From positions 30,138 to 94,137 of the forward strand of contig JAADHR010000017.1 of NCBI GenBank assembly GCA_013151735.1: a stretch of 64,000 nt of DNA. The letters run 5' to 3'. The translations under genes were made by a program, and so were the position numbers. This document shows positions 5,239 through 31,888 of this stretch, one piece after another (position 1 is the stretch's first letter; each line of letters opens with the position of its first letter). The notes beneath the pieces are model-generated. The model was not told the DNA's origin. It worked only from the letters and a program-made list of their open reading frames with translations, and did no database searches. The DNA is from Calditrichota bacterium (GTDB lineage: Bacteria > Zhuqueibacterota > JdFR-76 > BMS3Abin05).

Positions 5239-6759
5239 ATGTTTGAACAGAAGGATGATCATCCGAGAAGCAAAGTAATTATTGTTTCCAATCGGTTGCC
5301 TATTGCGGTTACAAAAGATGAATCCGGAAATTGGCACGTGGAATCGGGCTCCGGTGGACTCGTAACGGCCCTGGCGCCTGTATTAAAAAATCGCGGCGGT
5401 TTATGGATTGGCTGGCCGGGAATACATGCCGAAGAAGGTCTCAACCTGGATGCCCTTCTAAAAAGTGCAACCCGGGACTCCGGCTATCGGCTTAAACCCG
5501 TTCTGCTTACAGAGGAAGAAATCAAAAAATACTACATGGGTTTTTCGAATGAAGTGCTTTGGCCCCTATTTCACGATTTTGTCCCCTTTTGTAATTTTCG
5601 ACCCGAATACTGGAAATTCTACACGCGGGTGAATAAGAAATTTGCTGAGGTTGTTCAGGCGAACAGCAGCGGCCGGGATTTTATCTGGATTCACGACTAT
5701 CATCTAATTGGTGTCGCAAAAGAGCTTCGCGAAATGGGAGACAAGTCAAAATTGGGCTTCTTTTTGCATATTCCGTTTCCCCCTCTGGACATTTTTTTGA
5801 AACTGCCCTGGCGGTTTCAGATTTTGCGTCTCCTGTTTCAATATGATTTGGTCGGATTTCAAACCCTCAGAGACCGCCGCAACTTCATTCAATGCGTTCG
5901 AACCCTCATGCATGATATGTCTATTCAGGGCAAGGGACAGGTTATTCGAATTAAAACGGAGAATCGTGAGATTCGGGTTGGGGTTTTCCCCATCAGTATT
6001 GATTATCATGAATTTGCAAACCTGGCCAAAACGGAAAGGGTTTCCAAAGAAGCCTGGTACATTCACGAAAATCTGCCGGAAGTTAAAATTATTTTGGGTA
6101 TAGACCGGCTGGATTATTCAAAAGGAATTATTGAAAAATTAAATGCTTATCGGAATGCCCTGCTTCGTTACCCGGAGCTGCAGGGCAATGTTATTTTGGC
6201 TCAGATTCTAGTTCCAAGCCGGCGCAGTATTCCCATGTATGCTGCACTAAAGGAAGAGATCGAACAACTGGTGGGCGAGATTAACGGCCAGTTTACGCGT
6301 TCAGGGTGGATCCCGATTTATTACCGCTTCCAGAGCCTGGGACGTGTGGAATTGGTGGCCCACTATCGCACAGCCGAAATACTGCTGGTTACGCCTCCCA
6401 AGGATGGAATGAATCTGGTTTCCAAGGAATATTGTGCCTCAAATATTGAGGAAAATGGCGTGGTTGTGGTCAGCGAATTCGCAGGTGTGGCGGCTCAGTT
6501 TCAAAAAAGCGCCATATTGATTAATCCTTACGATATTGAAGGTGTGGCCGATGCGATTTATCGTGCCTATTCTATGACTCCAGAAGAGCGTCGAATGCGC
6601 ATGCACAAACTCCGCCAATCCATCCGAAAAACAGATATTTACTGGTGGGTCAATTCCTTTCTATTGGCCGCCATTGCCAAACGTTTGGACAATTTTCCAA
6701 TCGTTGAAGATTATATCCCAATATATGACGACGAAGAAAGTTTTTCCGAAAATGGTTAG
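5239..6759 (+). CDS. otsA: Alpha,alpha-trehalose-phosphate synthase (GT20)
   Basis: IIVSNRLPI...GGLVTAL...LWIGWPG and IWIHDYHL are hallmarks of OtsA/TPS. 506 aa. Confidence 0.9.
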
Positions 6760-7353: not shown

Positions 7354-10300
7354 ATGGATAGTTCATTTGCAAACCGGCGTGTTTTCATTTTATTGGCAGC
7401 CATTGTCTTGCTGTTTCAAATGAATGGAATGGCTGCTCCTTTGGGAGTCGAATCTCAGTCAAAAAATTGGCCACAAATGAGTAAAACCGCACAAAATGTG
7501 TTCGAGAATCAATCAAGCGAGTCTGTGACCGGCACCATTGATACCATTGAGGTGACCGGTGATACAACCGCGTTTCCCCGCGATCCGTCCAAAATTTATG
7601 TTATTGCAGATTATCTACCCAAGATTTCAAAAGAAGTCGCGAATATTAAAGTGCAAAGTTCCGGCTTTTTTAGGATTTTTACCCAGGTTTTAAATGATAA
7701 GGATCAGCATAACGAAAGCTTTTTTCTGCAAATTCGTTATCCGGATAGTTCCCTTATTAATGCATGCGATGCCAACCTGGGACCGTACAAGGTCGTTATT
7801 GATACGACCGCTCCGGATTCAGAAGATTCCCAAATCCGGTACGCAGGTACATTTTATTTCAAAAAGGGAATCAACACAATTATCCTGAATCATTATGCCA
7901 AAATTGCCGTTCGTTTTCCAATATTCTGGAATGGGAATACGGACAGTGTCTCGATTCATTCGAATCCTGAAAGCGTCCATTTTAAACAGGTCATTCTAAT
8001 AAAAGTAACCAATCCCTTTGATGCAGCGTTAACCTATTCCGCAAGTGCAGATACACTCATCGATGTGGGGGGGCAAATGGTGAAAGCCGTGAAAGAGGGC
8101 AGACCGTATTCCTATGTATTAAGGGTGAAAAATGTTGGAAAGGGCAGACTCATTCGGTTTAAAATAAAAGCGCTCATTCCCGATTCCACCACCTTTTTTA
8201 ATATTCGGCCTGCACCGGACACAACCCGAAACGATACCGTATTCTGGCAAATTGATTCTCTTTCTCCCGGGGCGGAGCAAACCATTTTGATTGATGCCAA
8301 GTCTTTTACGAATCTGGTTGTAACCCCTCATCGCCTTTTTAGCCGCGCCTGGGTTGAATCCAAATGCGACACCAATCTTGTCAATAATGAAGATTCCACG
8401 ATTGTTTATGCGTATAGTCCGTGTGATTTTTTTACCCCGGAAGCCCCGCAAATTCAAGCAAGTTCACAGTCCGTTTTTGAGAATCAAAGCCTTTTCATCC
8501 GGGTTCGACTTCCCAAACGGGTGATGGCCTGGGATTTACGGGTCCATTATGCGGACGGAACCGTCGATTCAAGTTACGGGGACGCGTTTATCCAGTCAAC
8601 CGGCAATGTGGCCGACCAGTGGTTGACTGTTCACCCTCGTTTCACGAATACGAAACTGTTAACGGCGGCGGATCACGAACAAATCGTGTTTGAGCTTTTT
8701 TCAACAGATTCATGCGGATATTCGAATGTGGCATACGATACGGTAACCGTAAATCGGGAGAAGTGCGATTTGGCCCTGAACTACACGGCTCAAACGGATA
8801 CGATCGTTCATTATCAGGGGGCGGATGTTCCTGCCGTGATGGAAGGAGAAAGCTATTCCTACAAAATTGATCTCACCAATACCGGGCCGGATACCGCCCG
8901 GAGTGTTCGGCTTTGGGTTATCCGGCCGGATTCTGTAACCTGGAGCAGTTTTGTGCCTTCTCCTCAGGTTTTAAAGTCGGATACGGCTTTCTGGACATTT
9001 GATAAAATGTCTCCCGGAAGTGACAGAGAAATTACATTTCAAGCAACGGTAGCGGACTCTATTCCTGTTTCCCCTATTCAATTGCTGAGCAAAGCCGGAA
9101 TACAGGCCAAAGCGGATACGAATCAGGCGAATAATATCGACAGTACACGGGTTCTGGCGTTTGATCGGTGTACATTTTTTACCCCGGAAGCGCCGCAAAT
9201 CCAGCTTGTGCCGAATTCGGTATTTGAAGGAGACAGCGCAGTGGTCCGCGTGCGCCTTCCCAAACGCGTCACCTGGTGGGACATTCGTGTGTACACGGTG
9301 GACGGCCGCGTCGATTCAAGCTACGGGGATGCGTTTATCCAGTCAACCGGCAATGTGGCCGACCAGTGGTTGACCATCCGGCCGAGTTTCACCAACACAC
9401 AGCTTTTGACAGAGGCAAATCAGGAACCCATTGTTTTTGAATTGCGCACGCAGGATGCTTGCGGACATGCGGGATTGGTGCGCGATACGCTTTTTGTAAA
9501 GAGAATTATTGAAAAATGTGATGTGAGCCTGAAATATACGGTTCATACCGATACCTCTGTGGTCTACCAGGGGAAAACGGTTCCTGCTGTATTGGAGGGC
9601 ACATCCTATTCCTACGAAATTATGGTTAGAAATGCAGGCCCGGACACGGCCCGACATGTCCGGATTTGGGCCACCCAACCCGACTCGGCTACGTTTAACC
9701 ATTTTTCCCCTGCTATTCAATATGTAAATGGCGATACAGTCTTTTGGGCTTTTGATAAACTGGCTCCATCGGAAACCGTTAATCTCACATTTTCCGCTCG
9801 CGTTTCAGATAAACTTCCGGCTGCTCCGGTTGAGCTTTTTAGCAAGGCCATGGTACAGGCGGATGACGATACGAACCAGGCAAACAATGCGGATAGCACC
9901 CAGGTGTTTGGATTCAATTCTTGTGCATTTTTCTCTCCGGAATCTCCTAAAATAGAGGTTTCACCGGCTTTTGTGGAAGTAGGGGATAGCGTTCAGGTAC
10001 GTGTCTGGCTTCCCAAGGGCGTGGTATCCTGGGATGTTGATGTCCGGTTTGTAAATGGAAAAATAGATTCCAGTTACGCCGATGCCTTTATCCGTCGTAC
10101 CGGAAATGTTCCGGATCAATGGATCACGCTCCAGCCGGTATTTACCGAAACACGGCTTATTACACGGGCGCTTCAGGAGGCCATTATTTTTGAGCTTCAC
10201 ACGCAAGATCGTTGCGGGAATCGTCAAACAGCTCAGGCTCGGGTTTTAGTGAAGAGCAGTAATGATTGTCTGTTGGATCGAAATGTTTTCAAGGCAGAAG

Positions 10301-27463: not shown

Positions 27464-28513
27464 ATGGCGATGGAAAAAATGAACCTAAAGGGGATGACGC
27501 TCTCTGAGCTTGAGCATTTTGTGAACGCGACCGGGATTGAGCCGTATCGGGCGCGCCAGATTTTTCAATGGATTTACAATAAGAATGCGACCTCATTTGA
27601 GGAAATGACCAATCTCAGCAAAAGTCTTCGGCAAAAACTATCTGAAAAAGCGGATATCCCCACACTTAAAATCCTTCGGTTAAATCGCTCAACCCAGAGC
27701 GGAACCGTTAAATTTCTTTTTCAATTACCCGATGGCGAAGCCATAGAAAGTGTTTACATGCCCGACGGCGGCCGCCGCACGGTGTGCGTGTCGTCCCAAG
27801 TGGGGTGTGCCCTGCGGTGCCGCTTTTGCCGAACCGGCCAAATGGGACTCAAACGCAACCTGCAGGTCTGGGAAATCGTGGATCAGGTATTGGCTGTGGA
27901 ACGGGAGTTGGGCGTCCGGGTGACAAACATTGTGTTAATGGGAATGGGAGAGCCCTTTCACAATTATGAAAACGTCCTTCGTGCAGCCGAATTGTTTTCA
28001 CACCCTGAAGGATTGTCCATCGGGCAGCGAAAAATTACCCTTTCTACCAGCGGGGTGGTCCCGGCCATCCGGCGCTTCACGCGTGAAAATCGACGCTTTA
28101 AGCTGGCTGTTTCCCTGAATGCCACAACCGATTCGGTGCGAAGCGACCTGATGCCCATTAATAAAAAATATCCGCTTTCCGACGTGCTGGACGCGGTGCG
28201 CGACTATTCCCGCGCGTCCCGCCATCGCGTGACCTTCGAATATGTGCTGATTGCGGGGAAAAATGATTCCGTGGACGATGCCCGCCGGCTCCGACGGCTG
28301 CTCAACGGTATCCGCTGCAAGATTAATCTGATTCCTTACAATCCCGCACTTCCGGAATTCCGCGCACCCGATGAAGAAACCATGAATCGTTTTATCCGGG
28401 AATTGCTGGATTTTCCGGCTCCGGTGACCGTACGCAGAAGCAATGGAGAGGATATTGACGCCGCTTGCGGGCAATTGCTCGTAAAAAATGAAGATTTTGT
28501 AAAAATTACTTGA
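27464..28513 (+). CDS. rlmN: 23S rRNA/tRNA adenosine-C2 methyltransferase (radical SAM)
   Basis: CALRCRFCRTG radical-SAM cysteine motif with RlmN/Cfr family length and pattern. 349 aa. Confidence 0.9.
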   Translation: MAMEKMNLKGMTLSELEHFVNATGIEPYRARQIFQWIYNKNATSFEEMTNLSKSLRQKLSEKADIPTLKILRLNRSTQSGTVKFLFQLPDGEAIESVYMPDGGRRTVCVSSQVGCALRCRFCRTGQMGLKRNLQVWEIVDQVLAVERELGVRVTNIVLMGMGEPFHNYENVLRAAELFSHPEGLSIGQRKITLSTSGVVPAIRRFTRENRRFKLAVSLNATTDSVRSDLMPINKKYPLSDVLDAVRDYSRASRHRVTFEYVLIAGKNDSVDDARRLRRLLNGIRCKINLIPYNPALPEFRAPDEETMNRFIRELLDFPAPVTVRRSNGEDIDAACGQLLVKNEDFVKIT

Positions 28514-28657
28514 TTTTTTTAGATAAAGTTCTTAAGTTGCCCTGTAAAGCAGCTATTGCTAAGGTGTTTTTGGAATATTTTGTACCCGGGTTGGGGATGG
28601 GGAGTTGAAAATTGTGATACAACGGATCGATTTGTATTTTTGAAAAGGATGATTGGA

Positions 28658-29641
28658 ATGAATGACTTCCTGCAAAATTTCCGAATGGCAAAATACAGAT
28701 TCCTCTTACGGCCGCGAGATTATCTAAAGCTCTCCCATTACGCCGGAAGCTCGCTTCGCAGAGATTTTATTGATGTGTTCAAGGAAATCAGTTGCACGGA
28801 AAATGAAGTCTCCTGTAAATCCTGTCCCAAAAAGGGTGAATGTGCCTACTATCACGTGATAGAAGGCGGGGTTAAAAAGGACTACGGTGATCTGGCCAAA
28901 CGCTTCCAAACGCCACCCAAACCCTTTGTTTTTGAACCTCCCCTGAGCCGAAAGACCTTCTACAGCATGAATGAGGATATTGCATTCGATCTTATTTTGA
29001 TCGGGAAGGCCCTTGAGTATTTTCCCTATTTTGTGGCCACCATGCGCAAAATCGGTGAGATGGGGATGGGACGAAACCGCGGAAAATTTACCATTCGAAA
29101 AATCTTGGGTATAAATCTGAAAACGAATTATGTGGTCAGTGAGTATTCGTTTGCGCCATCAGAGGAATCGTTCGACCGGGATATTTCTGTTTCTTTGGAG
29201 GATATCTACAAAAAGAATATCTGGAAAAACAACGACCCGCTGGGAGGCGTGGAAGTTACATTTTTGACCCCCTTGCGGATGAAGCGCGTGGGATACACCA
29301 ATTGGCATTTGTATTTTCGGACGCTGATTAAGAATATTCTGTCGCGTGTCTCAATCTTAAATTATTTCCACAATAATTATCCGGATTTGGTTGAATTCCC
29401 GGAGCTTGTTGAAAATGCCCGCAGTATTCGGATTTCAGAGGATAATTTGATCTGGGACGATTGGCGGAATCCCCGCAAGCGGGATGACTCAAACCACAAA
29501 TTGGGCGGCTACCTGGGCGACATTTCTTACACCGGGAATTTGGAAGAGTACTGGCCCCTGCTCAAAATTGCAGAAATCTTGCACGTGGGAAAAAATTGCG
29601 GGTTTGGAATGGGACGAATTCTGGTGGAAGCCAATAAATAG
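28658..29641 (+). CDS. Hypothetical protein with a Cys4 knuckle and two Gly-rich loops; possible orphan RAMP/Cas6-like RNA-binding protein
   Basis: Start at the ATG with an AAGGA RBS 8 nt upstream. The N-terminus (KYRFLLRP..LKLSHYAGSSLRRDFIDVF) resembles the Cas6 N-terminal pattern. Contains C-x6-C-x2-C-x5-C. Two glycine-rich segments (IGEMGMGRNRGKF and a C-terminal VGKNCGFGMGRIL) resemble the RAMP G-rich loop. Confidence 0.5.
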   Translation: MNDFLQNFRMAKYRFLLRPRDYLKLSHYAGSSLRRDFIDVFKEISCTENEVSCKSCPKKGECAYYHVIEGGVKKDYGDLAKRFQTPPKPFVFEPPLSRKTFYSMNEDIAFDLILIGKALEYFPYFVATMRKIGEMGMGRNRGKFTIRKILGINLKTNYVVSEYSFAPSEESFDRDISVSLEDIYKKNIWKNNDPLGGVEVTFLTPLRMKRVGYTNWHLYFRTLIKNILSRVSILNYFHNNYPDLVEFPELVENARSIRISEDNLIWDDWRNPRKRDDSNHKLGGYLGDISYTGNLEEYWPLLKIAEILHVGKNCGFGMGRILVEANK

Positions 29642-29793
29642 ACTCCGGACAAAGTCCGCGTGGGTTCATACGAACAGAATTGAGTTAGAGATTACGGGTT
29701 TTCGTTCGAACAGAACGCGGCTGTTTTTCGGCTGAAGCACGCGGGGGAGTCTTATTGCTAAAAGTTCGGAATGAGCGGCTCTTGAGCCGGAAT

Positions 29794-30480
29794 TTATAAA
29801 AATGTGCCCAAACCGTTCTGTTTTGTTTTTCGCCACATGCCTGCAATATCCCGCTGGTACGGGTGATTGAAAGTACCCGGCCAGGACTCAATGACCAGCG
29901 AAATTTTTTGAAAGTCACCCAATTCAAATAAACTTTCCAACAGGCCCAGAACGGCCCCCCAGTGGGTCGGGTGCAAATGAAGAATTTTCCTGAAATCCGA
30001 AATGGCACCGCGGAAATCTCCCATTTCCTTCCTGACCCATCCCCTGTAATAGAAATATCTTGTTTTGGGCTGGACCAGTCGGATGAGCTGATTGAGAAGT
30101 TTGCTTGCCTGCGTGAGAAAATAGGTGCGGTTCTCAGGAACATGGGGCCAGATTTGCGAATAGCGTAAAAACACAACGGCCAGGGCCAGCTGGTACCCCG
30201 GATAATCGGGTTCCCGACGCATTTTTTGGCGAATTTTGTAGATTCGTTTTCGAAACTGGACATCCAGTGTGTCCAATTCACCCTTTGCCGCAATTTTAAA
30301 TGTCAGATTGGAATGTCTGGAGAGCCGATGCAATTCCTGGATCGCCAGCGCATAAAAGGGCCGCCGCAATTGATGAATACCCTGAACCCTTTGCTCAGAA
30401 TTTTTGCTGAGAAGCAGATCCGTAGTTACGCCGATTGGATCCGAAAGATTAGCTTGAGTAAACGGTTTTTCCTGGGGCAT
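29794..30480 (-). CDS. Hypothetical protein, helical repeat (TPR-like)
   Basis: 228-aa ORF at the end of the minus-strand operon, overlapping the upstream gene's 3' end. No recognisable catalytic motifs. Confidence 0.45.
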   Translation of the reverse strand: MPQEKPFTQANLSDPIGVTTDLLLSKNSEQRVQGIHQLRRPFYALAIQELHRLSRHSNLTFKIAAKGELDTLDVQFRKRIYKIRQKMRREPDYPGYQLALAVVFLRYSQIWPHVPENRTYFLTQASKLLNQLIRLVQPKTRYFYYRGWVRKEMGDFRGAISDFRKILHLHPTHWGAVLGLLESLFELGDFQKISLVIESWPGTFNHPYQRDIAGMWRKTKQNGLGTFL

Positions 30481-31888
30481 GGCGGCGACTCATTTTTTCA
30501 AGAATTTTTGCATGGATTTGCAAAACCTCCAAAACCTGCTTCATCATGACCTTGGAGGATTCGTAATCGGGTTCGAATACGCTGAACCCGTAATCAAATT
30601 TTCGTTTTTCATTGTCTGGGCCGGCAAGATAATTCAGTCTCTTGTTTAAACGATTTAAAATACCGGACATCTCGTAAAAGCCCGTAAAGGGAAGAATTAT
30701 CCAGATCAGGCTGCGCGGCTTGTCCACATAAATCTGATCCAGTTCCCGGATTTCAGTCTGAATCGATTGGGTTAATTCGGCAACGGAAAGGTCAGGCACG
30801 CCCGTCTGTGTCCGAATGGCGATGAGTGAGAAGGATGACTGGAAACGCCTGGCTCGCCGAAACTCGCTTTCGACAAGTGAGAGAAAATCGTAGGGAGACT
30901 GAATAATCTGCTGCCAGAGGGGTCGTTTCCTGTCTCTGGATTCCTGCACCTCCCGGGTAACAGCCAGGGCCAGTTCAGCCATTTTTCTAATGTAATTCAG
31001 GGCCTGTAAGGTCCGCTGGTGCAGAAGCGCAAAAGGCATTTTATCCACGCTGATCAGGTACTTTGCTTGACCCGCCTCGCGGATCGGAATGTAAATGAGC
31101 CCCCGGTGTGACGCCTTTTTCCACTCGGAAAAAAGGGCGTCATTTTTGGATATGTCGGCTATGGAAAAGATTCTCTCCCCTTCTGAAATTCTTTTTAGAA
31201 AGGGGTTGGATTCCAGGGAAATAGCCTTCTTCTGGCCCGCCTCTTTTGCTTTTTCCGGAATCAGGGTGTGATCCTCTACCCGAAAGATTACCAATTCCTG
31301 CGCCCGGGTGATTCGGCTTACACTCTGGTAAAGGGCCCGGGTAAAATCCGGGCGTGATGTCAGAAACGATCGAAATATCTTGTACACCAGCGAAAAGGTG
31401 TATTCCTGGTTTCGAATCAACCGTTCCAGATTTTCAGATTTGATCCGCTGCTTTTGCAGTTCGCGGTGAAGCACCTCGGAACGTTTTTCTGACCGGGTCT
31501 GTTTAGTCTTCAGTGAAATTTGTTTGTCTTTTGTCTGGGTGTAATAAATGAAGAGGAGACCGAAAATGGCCAACATATCCAGAGTTGGCGGAACGGCATA
31601 CCGCAGCCAGCTGGTAAGCGGACCGTTTGGAAAATAAAAGAAAAAATAGTGAGAAATCAAAAAGGCTGGAACTGCGGCCAATGCCGCCCAGAAAAATTTG
31701 TCCCTTTTAAGAAAAAGCGCTCCATAGACCATCCAAACCATGTAGAGATGATAAGAACCCAAAACCCTCCAGAAATGATCCGGTGTTCTAATGAGTGAAA
31801 TCAACACAACGGACAGAGAGAATCCCGTGAGGAGAATCAAAATCTCCATCTGTGTGACAGATTTTTTTGGGGGTGCACTTGTTTTCAT
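30449..31888 (-). CDS. Membrane protein with a cytoplasmic GAF-like region and a degenerate (non-catalytic) GGDEF-like domain
   Basis: N-terminal TM helices. The C-terminal region (RFQSSFSLIAIRTQ...RSLIWIILPFTG) aligns to the GGDEF fold but lacks the GG[DE]EF motif. Confidence 0.5.
   Translation of the reverse strand: MKTSAPPKKSVTQMEILILLTGFSLSVVLISLIRTPDHFWRVLGSYHLYMVWMVYGALFLKRDKFFWAALAAVPAFLISHYFFFYFPNGPLTSWLRYAVPPTLDMLAIFGLLFIYYTQTKDKQISLKTKQTRSEKRSEVLHRELQKQRIKSENLERLIRNQEYTFSLVYKIFRSFLTSRPDFTRALYQSVSRITRAQELVIFRVEDHTLIPEKAKEAGQKKAISLESNPFLKRISEGERIFSIADISKNDALFSEWKKASHRGLIYIPIREAGQAKYLISVDKMPFALLHQRTLQALNYIRKMAELALAVTREVQESRDRKRPLWQQIIQSPYDFLSLVESEFRRARRFQSSFSLIAIRTQTGVPDLSVAELTQSIQTEIRELDQIYVDKPRSLIWIILPFTGFYEMSGILNRLNKRLNYLAGPDNEKRKFDYGFSVFEPDYESSKVMMKQVLEVLQIHAKILEKMSRRHAPGKTVYSS

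Follow-up and report, generated by a model that had tools for sequence, protein, structure and literature searches.

A 64,000-nucleotide stretch of a Calditrichota bacterium genome (contig JAADHR010000017.1; the window) carries a cas6-like gene directly downstream of rlmN, and raises the question of what a Cas6-type protein does where no CRISPR-Cas system is in sight. A first-pass annotation, made from the sequence alone, had read the gene as an orphan RAMP/Cas6-like gene whose product may be domesticated outside CRISPR immunity. We find that the gene encodes a genuine Cas6-family protein, that its closest relatives form a clade kept in one housekeeping neighborhood under strong purifying selection, and that this clade has lost residues retained by the members found in CRISPR loci. 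The explanation we prefer, and to which we give about an even chance, is that a Cas6 was exapted in a Calditrichota lineage for a role on host RNA outside CRISPR immunity.

A Cas6-family protein encoded behind rlmN

28658..29641, + strand: cas6-like gene, 327 amino acids, AF_1859_N + CRISPR_Cas6 architecture (gene model).
29051..29089, + strand: first glycine-rich segment, IGEMGMGRNRGKF, residues 132–144, in the α2–β4 loop of the N-terminal RRM domain (AlphaFold2 secondary structure); G136 is invariant, G133 and G138 are at least 90% conserved.
29255..29620, + strand: C-terminal RRM domain, residues 200–321, the Pfam CRISPR_Cas6 region; aligned to Cas6 6fjw and to Cas6-RT-Cas1 7kft and 6dd5.
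29582..29617, + strand: variant of the RAMP G-rich loop, residues 309–320, HVGKNCGFGMGR (H309-V-G-K312-N-C-G-F-G-M-G-R320); aligned to the G-rich loop of 6fjw.

The cas6-like gene lies in an open frame of 28556–29641 on the + strand. In homologs with as little as about 40% identity the protein starts at the position of the ATG at 28658 (MNDFLQNFRMAKYRF...), and its first residues are conserved, so 28658–29641 is the best gene model; the JGI annotation has the same start. The NCBI copy of the identical protein starts at M10 and is 318 residues long. Its name there is 'CRISPR system precrRNA processing endoribonuclease RAMP protein Cas6 [Calditrichota ...]', so the assignment to the Cas6 family is not in itself new.

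Several lines of evidence place the protein in the AF_1859/COG5551 subtype of the Cas6 family. Pfam CRISPR_Cas6 (PF10040) matches residues 200–321 with E=4e-18 (66.3 bits against a cut-off of 25), and the PADLOC Cas6 model PDLC01477 matches at 2e-77. The score against the NCBIfam equivalog TIGR01877, 35.4, is under the cut-off of 58.65 but still recognizable. The protein aligns end to end with homologs that carry both PF27225 (AF_1859_N) and PF10040, and it is through this alignment that AF_1859_N is assigned; the two families are found together in 41/42 homologs, the exception (P0033) being a 196-residue partial sequence with PF10040 only. When a profile of 24 family members was compared with PDB sequences, the best matches were S. 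thermophilus Cas6 (6fjw) and two Cas6-RT-Cas1 structures (7kft, 6dd5), aligned through the G-rich loop. The AlphaFold2 model built on the 24-member alignment (pLDDT 87.1, pTM 0.88) consists of two β-α-β-β-α-β units, i.e. two tandem ferredoxin-like/RRM domains, and Foldseek confirmed the Cas6 fold. The profile and structure comparisons that the first-pass annotation had proposed thus return the Cas6 family and the RRM/RAMP fold rather than an unrelated one, and its reading as a RAMP/Cas6-like protein is borne out by the two RRM domains and the G-rich loop near the C-terminus. The two glycine-rich segments that it had pointed out are both present in the translation.

In the G-rich loop, H309-V-G-KNCGF-G-M-G-R pairs with G-L-G-MKTSL-G-M-G of 6fjw. 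The first glycine of the GhGxxxxxGhG pattern is replaced by His309, which is invariant across the whole subfamily, and H309, G311, K312, G317, and G319 show little or no variation among CRISPR-linked and rlmN-linked members alike. The protein is only remotely related to structurally characterized Cas6 enzymes, with 11–19% identity to those of S. thermophilus (6fjw), S. solfataricus (3zfv/4ill), T. thermophilus (TTHA0078, 4c8y; TTHB231, 4c98), and P. furiosus (3pkm). It differs from them in being about 90 residues longer, including a loop with four cysteines (Cys4), and in having His in place of the first G-loop glycine.

A conserved neighborhood without CRISPR-Cas

27464..28513, + strand: rlmN, encoding a radical-SAM 23S rRNA/tRNA adenine-C2 methyltransferase (Pfam RlmN_N + Radical_SAM); conserved upstream neighbor, adjoining in all 17 rlmN-linked loci.

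The cas6-like gene is co-directional with rlmN, as had been noted, and the arrangement is kept in relatives down to 39% identity. Every relative at least 39% identical to the window protein has, in this order, DUF58 and MoxR genes (– strand), rlmN and the cas6-like gene (+ strand), and genes for a TPR protein, a 479-residue protein, and a STAS protein (– strand). There are 17 such rlmN-linked loci, from metagenome-assembled genomes (MAGs) and metagenomes, with 39–89% identity (the window, L002, L008, L009, L010, L012, L013, L015, L016, L089, L092, L094–L098, and the group L003/L004/L005/L011/L093).

Searches of the window agree with the annotation's remark that no cas gene, repeat, or spacer is visible in the 64 kb. 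Tandem Repeats Finder (TRF) found 0 arrays and a scan for spaced repeats (at least 3 copies) none; Rfam gave 0 matches over the 64 kb, tRNA and rRNA included. Among all 52 window proteins, PADLOC Cas models were matched by the cas6-like gene only (Cas6 models), and hidden Markov models (HMMs) built from the relatives' own cas neighbors found no match in the six-frame translation. A hidden or solo degenerate repeat was sought by comparing the 3' 20 nt of 18 repeat consensi, from arrays of relatives, with the window and nine core loci of the clade described below, and the best matches, 16–17/20, equal those of shuffled sequences. No cas gene or array lies within 10 kb in the 17 rlmN-linked loci by the custom HMMs (six-frame) and the spaced-repeat scan, and this is likewise the case for a paralog (L014) and for the sister loci L017, L090, and L100.

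One window protein has a strong PADLOC match (4e-116) to 'RtcR_PspF2--CARF_AAA_HTH', and Pfam finds one Sigma54_activat match in the window. The match most likely belongs to the window's sigma-54 activator, probably the gene at 43736–45088 (+), which has a response-regulator receiver-like start. We rejected a CARF sensor as its explanation; the match would most likely reflect the AAA+/HTH part of an NtrC-type regulator.

The subfamily in its usual CRISPR context

What do more distant relatives do? When genomes were scanned, one for each species, 268 proved to contain a relative, and 79 loci were kept for analysis; a metagenome scan gave 288, with 80 loci kept; open reading frames (ORFs) were called in all loci and clustered, and recurrent clusters were labeled with PADLOC. 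Among genome loci whose relatives are at most 35% identical to the window protein, about 60/67 have cas genes and/or an array in the fetched flank, and the metagenome loci show the same pattern, with cas genes and/or arrays in most of 70. The recurrent neighbors are Cas1, Cas2, Cas3, Cas4, Cas10/Csm1, Csm2–5, Cas10/Cmr2, Cmr3, Cmr4, Cas5/7/8 (I-A/I-B), Cas7d, and CARF proteins. The arrays often begin within 100–200 nt of the cas6 gene, and their repeats are 36–37 nt long; in each a short hairpin of the form CCC...GGG precedes a tail of 8 nt (e.g. ATTGCGAC, ACTGAAAG, and ATTAAGAC; further examples end in ...GGGATTGCGAC and ...GGGGACTGAAAG). A hairpin with an 8-nt tail is the usual layout of Cas6-processed repeats. 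Since the relatives' loci carry cas genes and Cas6-type repeat arrays, the family is a bona fide Cas6 subfamily of type I-A/B, I-D, III-A, and III-B systems in many phyla, and the relatives presumably cut the 36–37-nt repeats to release CRISPR RNAs (crRNAs) with an 8-nt tag.

The window protein resembles these CRISPR-linked AF_1859-type proteins (PF27225 + PF10040; COG5551; 25–35% identity) in its two-domain architecture, length, Cys4 insertion, and HxGK...GxG loop, and shares with them the invariant R34, R230, P87/P89, and G284/G287/G293. It differs in its surroundings: the relatives sit in Csm, Cmr, I-A/B, or I-D loci beside the repeat arrays, whereas the rlmN-linked clade is without such neighbors.

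A straightforward explanation would be that the gene encodes an ordinary crRNA-processing Cas6 that is kept away from the CRISPR-cas locus and acts in trans on arrays elsewhere, for example those of a type III system that lacks a cas6 gene of its own. We consider this a real possibility, though not the probable one. The fold, the G-rich loop, and the conserved R34, H309, and K312 are intact, and the NCBI name points the same way. In T. thermophilus, Cas6A (TTHA0078) is encoded by itself on the chromosome and serves arrays elsewhere. Within the subfamily, L106 provides an example of a solitary cas6: it adjoins an array, and no further cas gene occurs in the 14 kb. More generally, cas6 genes apart from cas operons have long been known (Makarova et al., PMC1462988). 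The surroundings of the window gene, 64 kb free of arrays and other cas genes, speak against the trans explanation, as does, weakly, the fact that no second, CRISPR-type member from the same MAGs is found among the best 80 genome matches. Further objections come from the evolution of the clade and from its residues, described in the following sections. As to the lone gene itself, in L106 (1–4301) and L107 a 33%-identical member directly follows an array of 39–46 repeats, and the next 10 kb hold NADH dehydrogenase genes and no other cas gene.

A slowly evolving clade under purifying selection

In a neighbor-joining tree of 78 family members (computed in numpy with 200 bootstraps), ten core sequences, all from Calditrichota-type MAGs, are monophyletic in 198/200 bootstraps. 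Assemblies that contain the clade are the MAG of NCBI protein NOY76405.1, GCA_964568545.1 (CAZMRE01), CAZIYL01, BDTM01 (BMS3Bbin03), CAZOHG01, CAJVYQ01, MTOL01 (JdFR-76), JAUXJX01, and CAYXGW01. Across nine loci the identity of the Cas6-like protein to that of the window is 89, 86, 78, 68, 52, 50, 43, 41, and 39%, and the identity of RlmN in the same loci is 83, 84, 76, 73, 57, 62, 57, 52, and 55%. The Cas6-like identity thus tracks that of RlmN, which indicates vertical co-inheritance with the surroundings, and the gene evolves at a low rate, similar to that of a housekeeping enzyme; the three genes 3' of it diverge faster. This slow divergence, and a housekeeping synteny that stays fixed between deeply diverged loci, contrast with the turnover that cas genes usually show, and argue against a crRNA nuclease acting in trans. 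The ratio of nonsynonymous to synonymous substitution rates (dN/dS) against the two closest orthologs is 0.057 and 0.069, compared with 0.077–0.099 for rlmN, at a dS of about 1, which is near saturation. The cas6-like gene is thus under strong purifying selection.

These data bear on whether the gene might have no current function, either decaying after the loss of a CRISPR-Cas locus or belonging to a mobile element or defense island. It is indeed an isolated member of a cas family, and in another Calditrichota MAG a type III locus adjoins rlmN. In none of the loci, nevertheless, is the ORF disrupted; dN/dS is close to 0.06, the same position is retained down to 39% identity, the GC content resembles that of the surroundings, and no integrase or transposase gene is found near the gene. 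The type III locus next to rlmN has the divergent orientation, and chance alone would produce about one such case in ~150 loci. The selection and the conserved synteny effectively refute the reading as a remnant or pseudogene, and we give it hardly any credence.

The locus in question (L044, 8603–12812, a Calditrichaeota MAG) contains a 32%-identical member with rlmN divergent upstream and Cas10-like and RAMP genes directly downstream. We considered it as an ancestral 'type III locus next to rlmN' and set this aside as a probable coincidence, given the divergent orientation, the different other neighbors, and the number of such cases expected. The arrangement could still mark the ancestral state.

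Two further contexts without CRISPR were seen. A sister clade with 35–38% identity (L017, 9974–10990; L090, 8333–9322; and, similarly, L100, 2088–3101) lies after phoH – 7TMR-HD – ybeY – corC, and thus beside an RNA-maturation operon, and in all cases before a sigma-54-type response regulator. A second paralog of the core clade, 46% identical, is found in the MAG that also contains L012 (L014 = L087, 6704–7705), where it lies beside selA/selB and a chemotaxis cluster, without cas genes. Upstream of it are 1.2 kb without a convincing gene, with a 34-nt imperfect inverted repeat at 5929–6116.

Residues lost in the clade

Position 35: G in 66/66 CRISPR-linked members; R or K in all ten core sequences.
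Position 38: G in 64/66 CRISPR-linked members; I/L/S/T/V in all ten core sequences.
Position 68: F in 65/66 CRISPR-linked members; I/M/L/V in 8/10 core sequences, F kept in L089 and L016.
Position 271: R in 66/66 CRISPR-linked members; N/H/S/P/K in all ten core sequences.
Position 273: S in 65/66 CRISPR-linked members; variable (R/A/E/S/N) in the core clade.
29468..29476, + strand: residues 271–273 (N-P-R), site of the lost R-x-S motif, in the β-hairpin loop between strands 258–268 and 283–292 of the C-terminal RRM domain (AlphaFold2).

A comparison of 66 CRISPR-linked members with the ten core-clade sequences separates what the clade has kept from what it has lost. Kept in both groups are R34, K/R42, C46, C56, C62, Y64, P87, P89, G116, P123, G136, and G138 in the N-terminal half, and P205, R230, G284, G287, G293, H309, G311, K312, G317, and G319 further on. 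The subfamily motifs R34-G35-x-F-G38 and R271-x-S273, in contrast, are not found in the core clade, which has lost G35, G38, R271, and S273 and mostly also F68. The sister clade stands in between: it retains G35 and R271 and has Q in place of S273. The loop that held R-x-S lies in a β-hairpin region that we take to contact the repeat RNA, as in Cas6 enzymes generally.

Because these residues are kept by members of every CRISPR subtype and phylum, their loss points to a change of RNA partner or of mechanism. It also speaks against a Cas6 working in trans on arrays elsewhere, as G35, G38, R271, and S273 (and F68, lost in 8/10) are invariant or nearly so in 66 CRISPR-linked members of I-A/B, I-D, III-A, and III-B systems from many phyla. 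Retention of the His/Lys/Gly loop and of R34, on the other hand, argues that nucleic-acid binding, and probably catalysis, persist.

The same losses could be taken further, to mean that the protein is a catalytically dead RNA-binding protein with a Cas6 fold, a regulator or chaperone rather than a nuclease. Both lost motifs, R271-x-S273 and R-G-x-F-G in helix α1, are presumably near the usual location of the Cas6 active site, whose His/Tyr/Lys or Lys/Arg sets lie close to α1 and the G-loop. Non-cleaving Cas6 paralogs exist, and one is among the structure matches (PDB 3ufc/3qjj, 'One RAMP protein binding different RNA substrates'). However, H309, K312, R34, K42, and Y64 are all invariant in the clade, and since no mapping exists of the subfamily's catalytic residues, there is no basis for asserting that they are lost. 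We consider a dead enzyme improbable.

A predicted iron–sulfur cluster loop

28793..28843, + strand: Cys4 motif C46-x6-C53-x2-C56-x5-C62, inserted after helix α1 of the N-terminal RRM domain; predicted metal site, with the four cysteines present in all 78 family members.

The C-x6-C-x2-C-x5-C motif had been read correctly from the sequence, but it is not peculiar to this gene: it is found family-wide, including the bona fide CRISPR-linked Cas6 relatives. The exact 6/2/5 spacing occurs in 43/78 family members, and in the others it is shifted, e.g. to C-x3-C-x6-C-x5/6-C. The annotation's further suggestion of a zinc-knuckle-like insertion was not upheld. Unlike zinc ribbons or knuckles, the motif has one CxxC pair only, and C-x6-C-x2-C-x5-C is the established cluster spacing of Endo III and MutY.

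Comparisons with PDB sequences led to the same enzymes. With the cas6-like protein alone, only ROS1 constructs were matched, exactly over the Cys4 motif (CTENEVSCKSCPKKGEC versus CTKSKPNCNACPMKGEC). A profile of the Cys4 region from 34 members gave eight PDB matches, all to HhH-GPD glycosylases (Endo III 8a5g/4uob/8a5f/4unf, ROS1, and MIG 1kea) and all aligned on the glycosylase's own [4Fe-4S] cluster loop, with marginal E-values of 0.055–1. The cas6-like protein shares with this cluster loop (FCL; Endo III, MutY/MIG, ROS1/DME) the identical Cys spacing, and CT.....C..CP.KGEC is common to it and ROS1. The likeness is at the level of the motif only, as the Cys4 motif of the cas6-like protein sits in an RRM domain and the HhH-GPD fold is absent; the resemblance may be of convergent origin. 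Because the spacing and the profile matches fit the glycosylase [4Fe-4S] loops and there is one CxxC only, we rejected the zinc knuckle in favor of an Fe-S cluster loop, and predict that the Cys4 loop of this Cas6 subfamily probably holds a [4Fe-4S] cluster, with zinc as the alternative. The prediction concerns the whole subfamily, not the orphan clade. We found no report of an Fe-S cluster in Cas6 in the literature open to full-text search, where only work on Cas4 and DinG surfaced. Within the core clade the first Cys loop is more acidic, with a mean charge of –1.2 compared to +0.33 (Mann–Whitney p=5e-4, uncorrected for phylogeny).

Genes and spacers around the cas6-like gene

28514..28657, + strand: spacer of 144 nt between rlmN and the cas6-like gene; no terminator-like site, sequence conserved among close relatives only.
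29703..29717, + strand: terminator-like hairpin past the stop codon of the cas6-like gene; a consensus match only, the count of such sites being not above that in shuffles.

A spacer without a terminator-like site, and the presence of one after the gene, make co-transcription of the cas6-like gene with rlmN possible. The rlmN–cas6 spacers are 123–215 nt long across loci and could equally house a promoter. An alignment of the spacer from nine loci showed conservation among close relatives only and no conserved structure that would indicate an RNA element; neither these spacers nor the long gaps upstream of the gene in L014, L012, and L017 contain meaningful repeats or hairpins, and Rfam found no family in eight core loci. 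The window's spacer contains a G-tract, GGGTTGGGGATGGGGAG, at 28589–28605, which is partly conserved in L008, L009, and L010. In L012 the region between rlmN and the cas6-like gene (8746–9181) has an inserted ORF of 96 residues and three tandem copies of a 19-nt unit, GCCTGCCCGACCGCAGCGG.

Further upstream, beyond rlmN, the MoxR-type AAA and DUF58/VWA genes lie on the opposite strand. Convergent to the cas6-like gene on its 3' side are the genes for the TPR protein, the 479-residue protein, and the STAS protein. The 479-residue protein (30449–31888, – strand) is conserved, has predicted N-terminal membrane segments and no Pfam match, and always lies between the TPR and STAS proteins in this lineage; it evolves fast, with 21–67% identity. 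The window as a whole is rich in signaling genes (two-component, PAS, and GAF), with 6 response-regulator domains and 4 histidine kinases.

A proposed exaptation of a Cas6 in the Calditrichota lineage

We propose that the gene left CRISPR loci in the Calditrichota lineage, where it is passed on vertically, under strong purifying selection, as a single gene after rlmN. The protein would still bind, and probably cleave, structured RNA through the retained surface of R34, H309, K312, and the G-loop, and its substrate would be a host RNA and no longer a CRISPR repeat. An rRNA- or tRNA-related or other cellular transcript is our guess for that substrate, prompted by the rlmN and ybeY neighborhoods; the hint at rRNA/tRNA metabolism is weak, because the whole region is syntenic. 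Domestication of a RAMP outside CRISPR, as the first-pass annotation had suggested, is compatible with the evidence at the level of the clade and somewhat favored by it. A more elaborate version, in which a [4Fe-4S] Cas6 was domesticated as a housekeeping RNA-processing or RNA-binding factor, co-expressed with RlmN (in the sister clade, placed after the ybeY operon) and acting on cellular RNA, possibly in a redox-sensitive manner, we regard as doubtful.

Several points weigh against exaptation. The description of the gene as an orphan is valid for the 64-kb window, out of a parent contig of 100.8 kb, and for the 10-kb flanks of the orthologs, rather than for the genome. All loci were recovered by searching with this very protein, which biases any estimate of how frequent the gene is in related genomes. 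Cas6 genes outside cas operons are no novelty (PMC1462988), and Cas6 proteins so encoded are known to work in trans. The retained G-loop, His, and Lys are equally expected of a working crRNA nuclease. Neither the flanking spacers, in which no conserved structure or element was found, nor Rfam offered a candidate substrate RNA. Finally, adjacency to rlmN may be purely positional: since the whole neighborhood is syntenic, the pairing alone is not evidence of functional coupling.

A precedent for a RAMP outside CRISPR is COG1851, a RAMP-like family not linked to CRISPR (Makarova et al. 2006, PMC1462988), which likewise combines the RAMP fold with a non-CRISPR context. COG1851 is, however, a distinct and remote family, whereas the cas6-like clade branched off recently from within a bona fide subfamily of Cas6. 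What is new here is the departure of a whole clade from CRISPR loci together with the loss of subfamily motifs, and the predicted Fe-S loop of the subfamily. Should the protein act in trans on distant arrays, the finding would be an ordinary one. There are few clear cases of Cas proteins recruited to non-defense roles, and an exapted Cas6 would add a small, single-protein, testable system whose departure from CRISPR loci can be located in the phylogeny. If the Fe-S prediction is true, a widespread Cas6 subfamily, serving type I and III systems in many phyla, would consist of iron–sulfur proteins, with a bearing on crRNA biogenesis under oxidative or iron-limited conditions.

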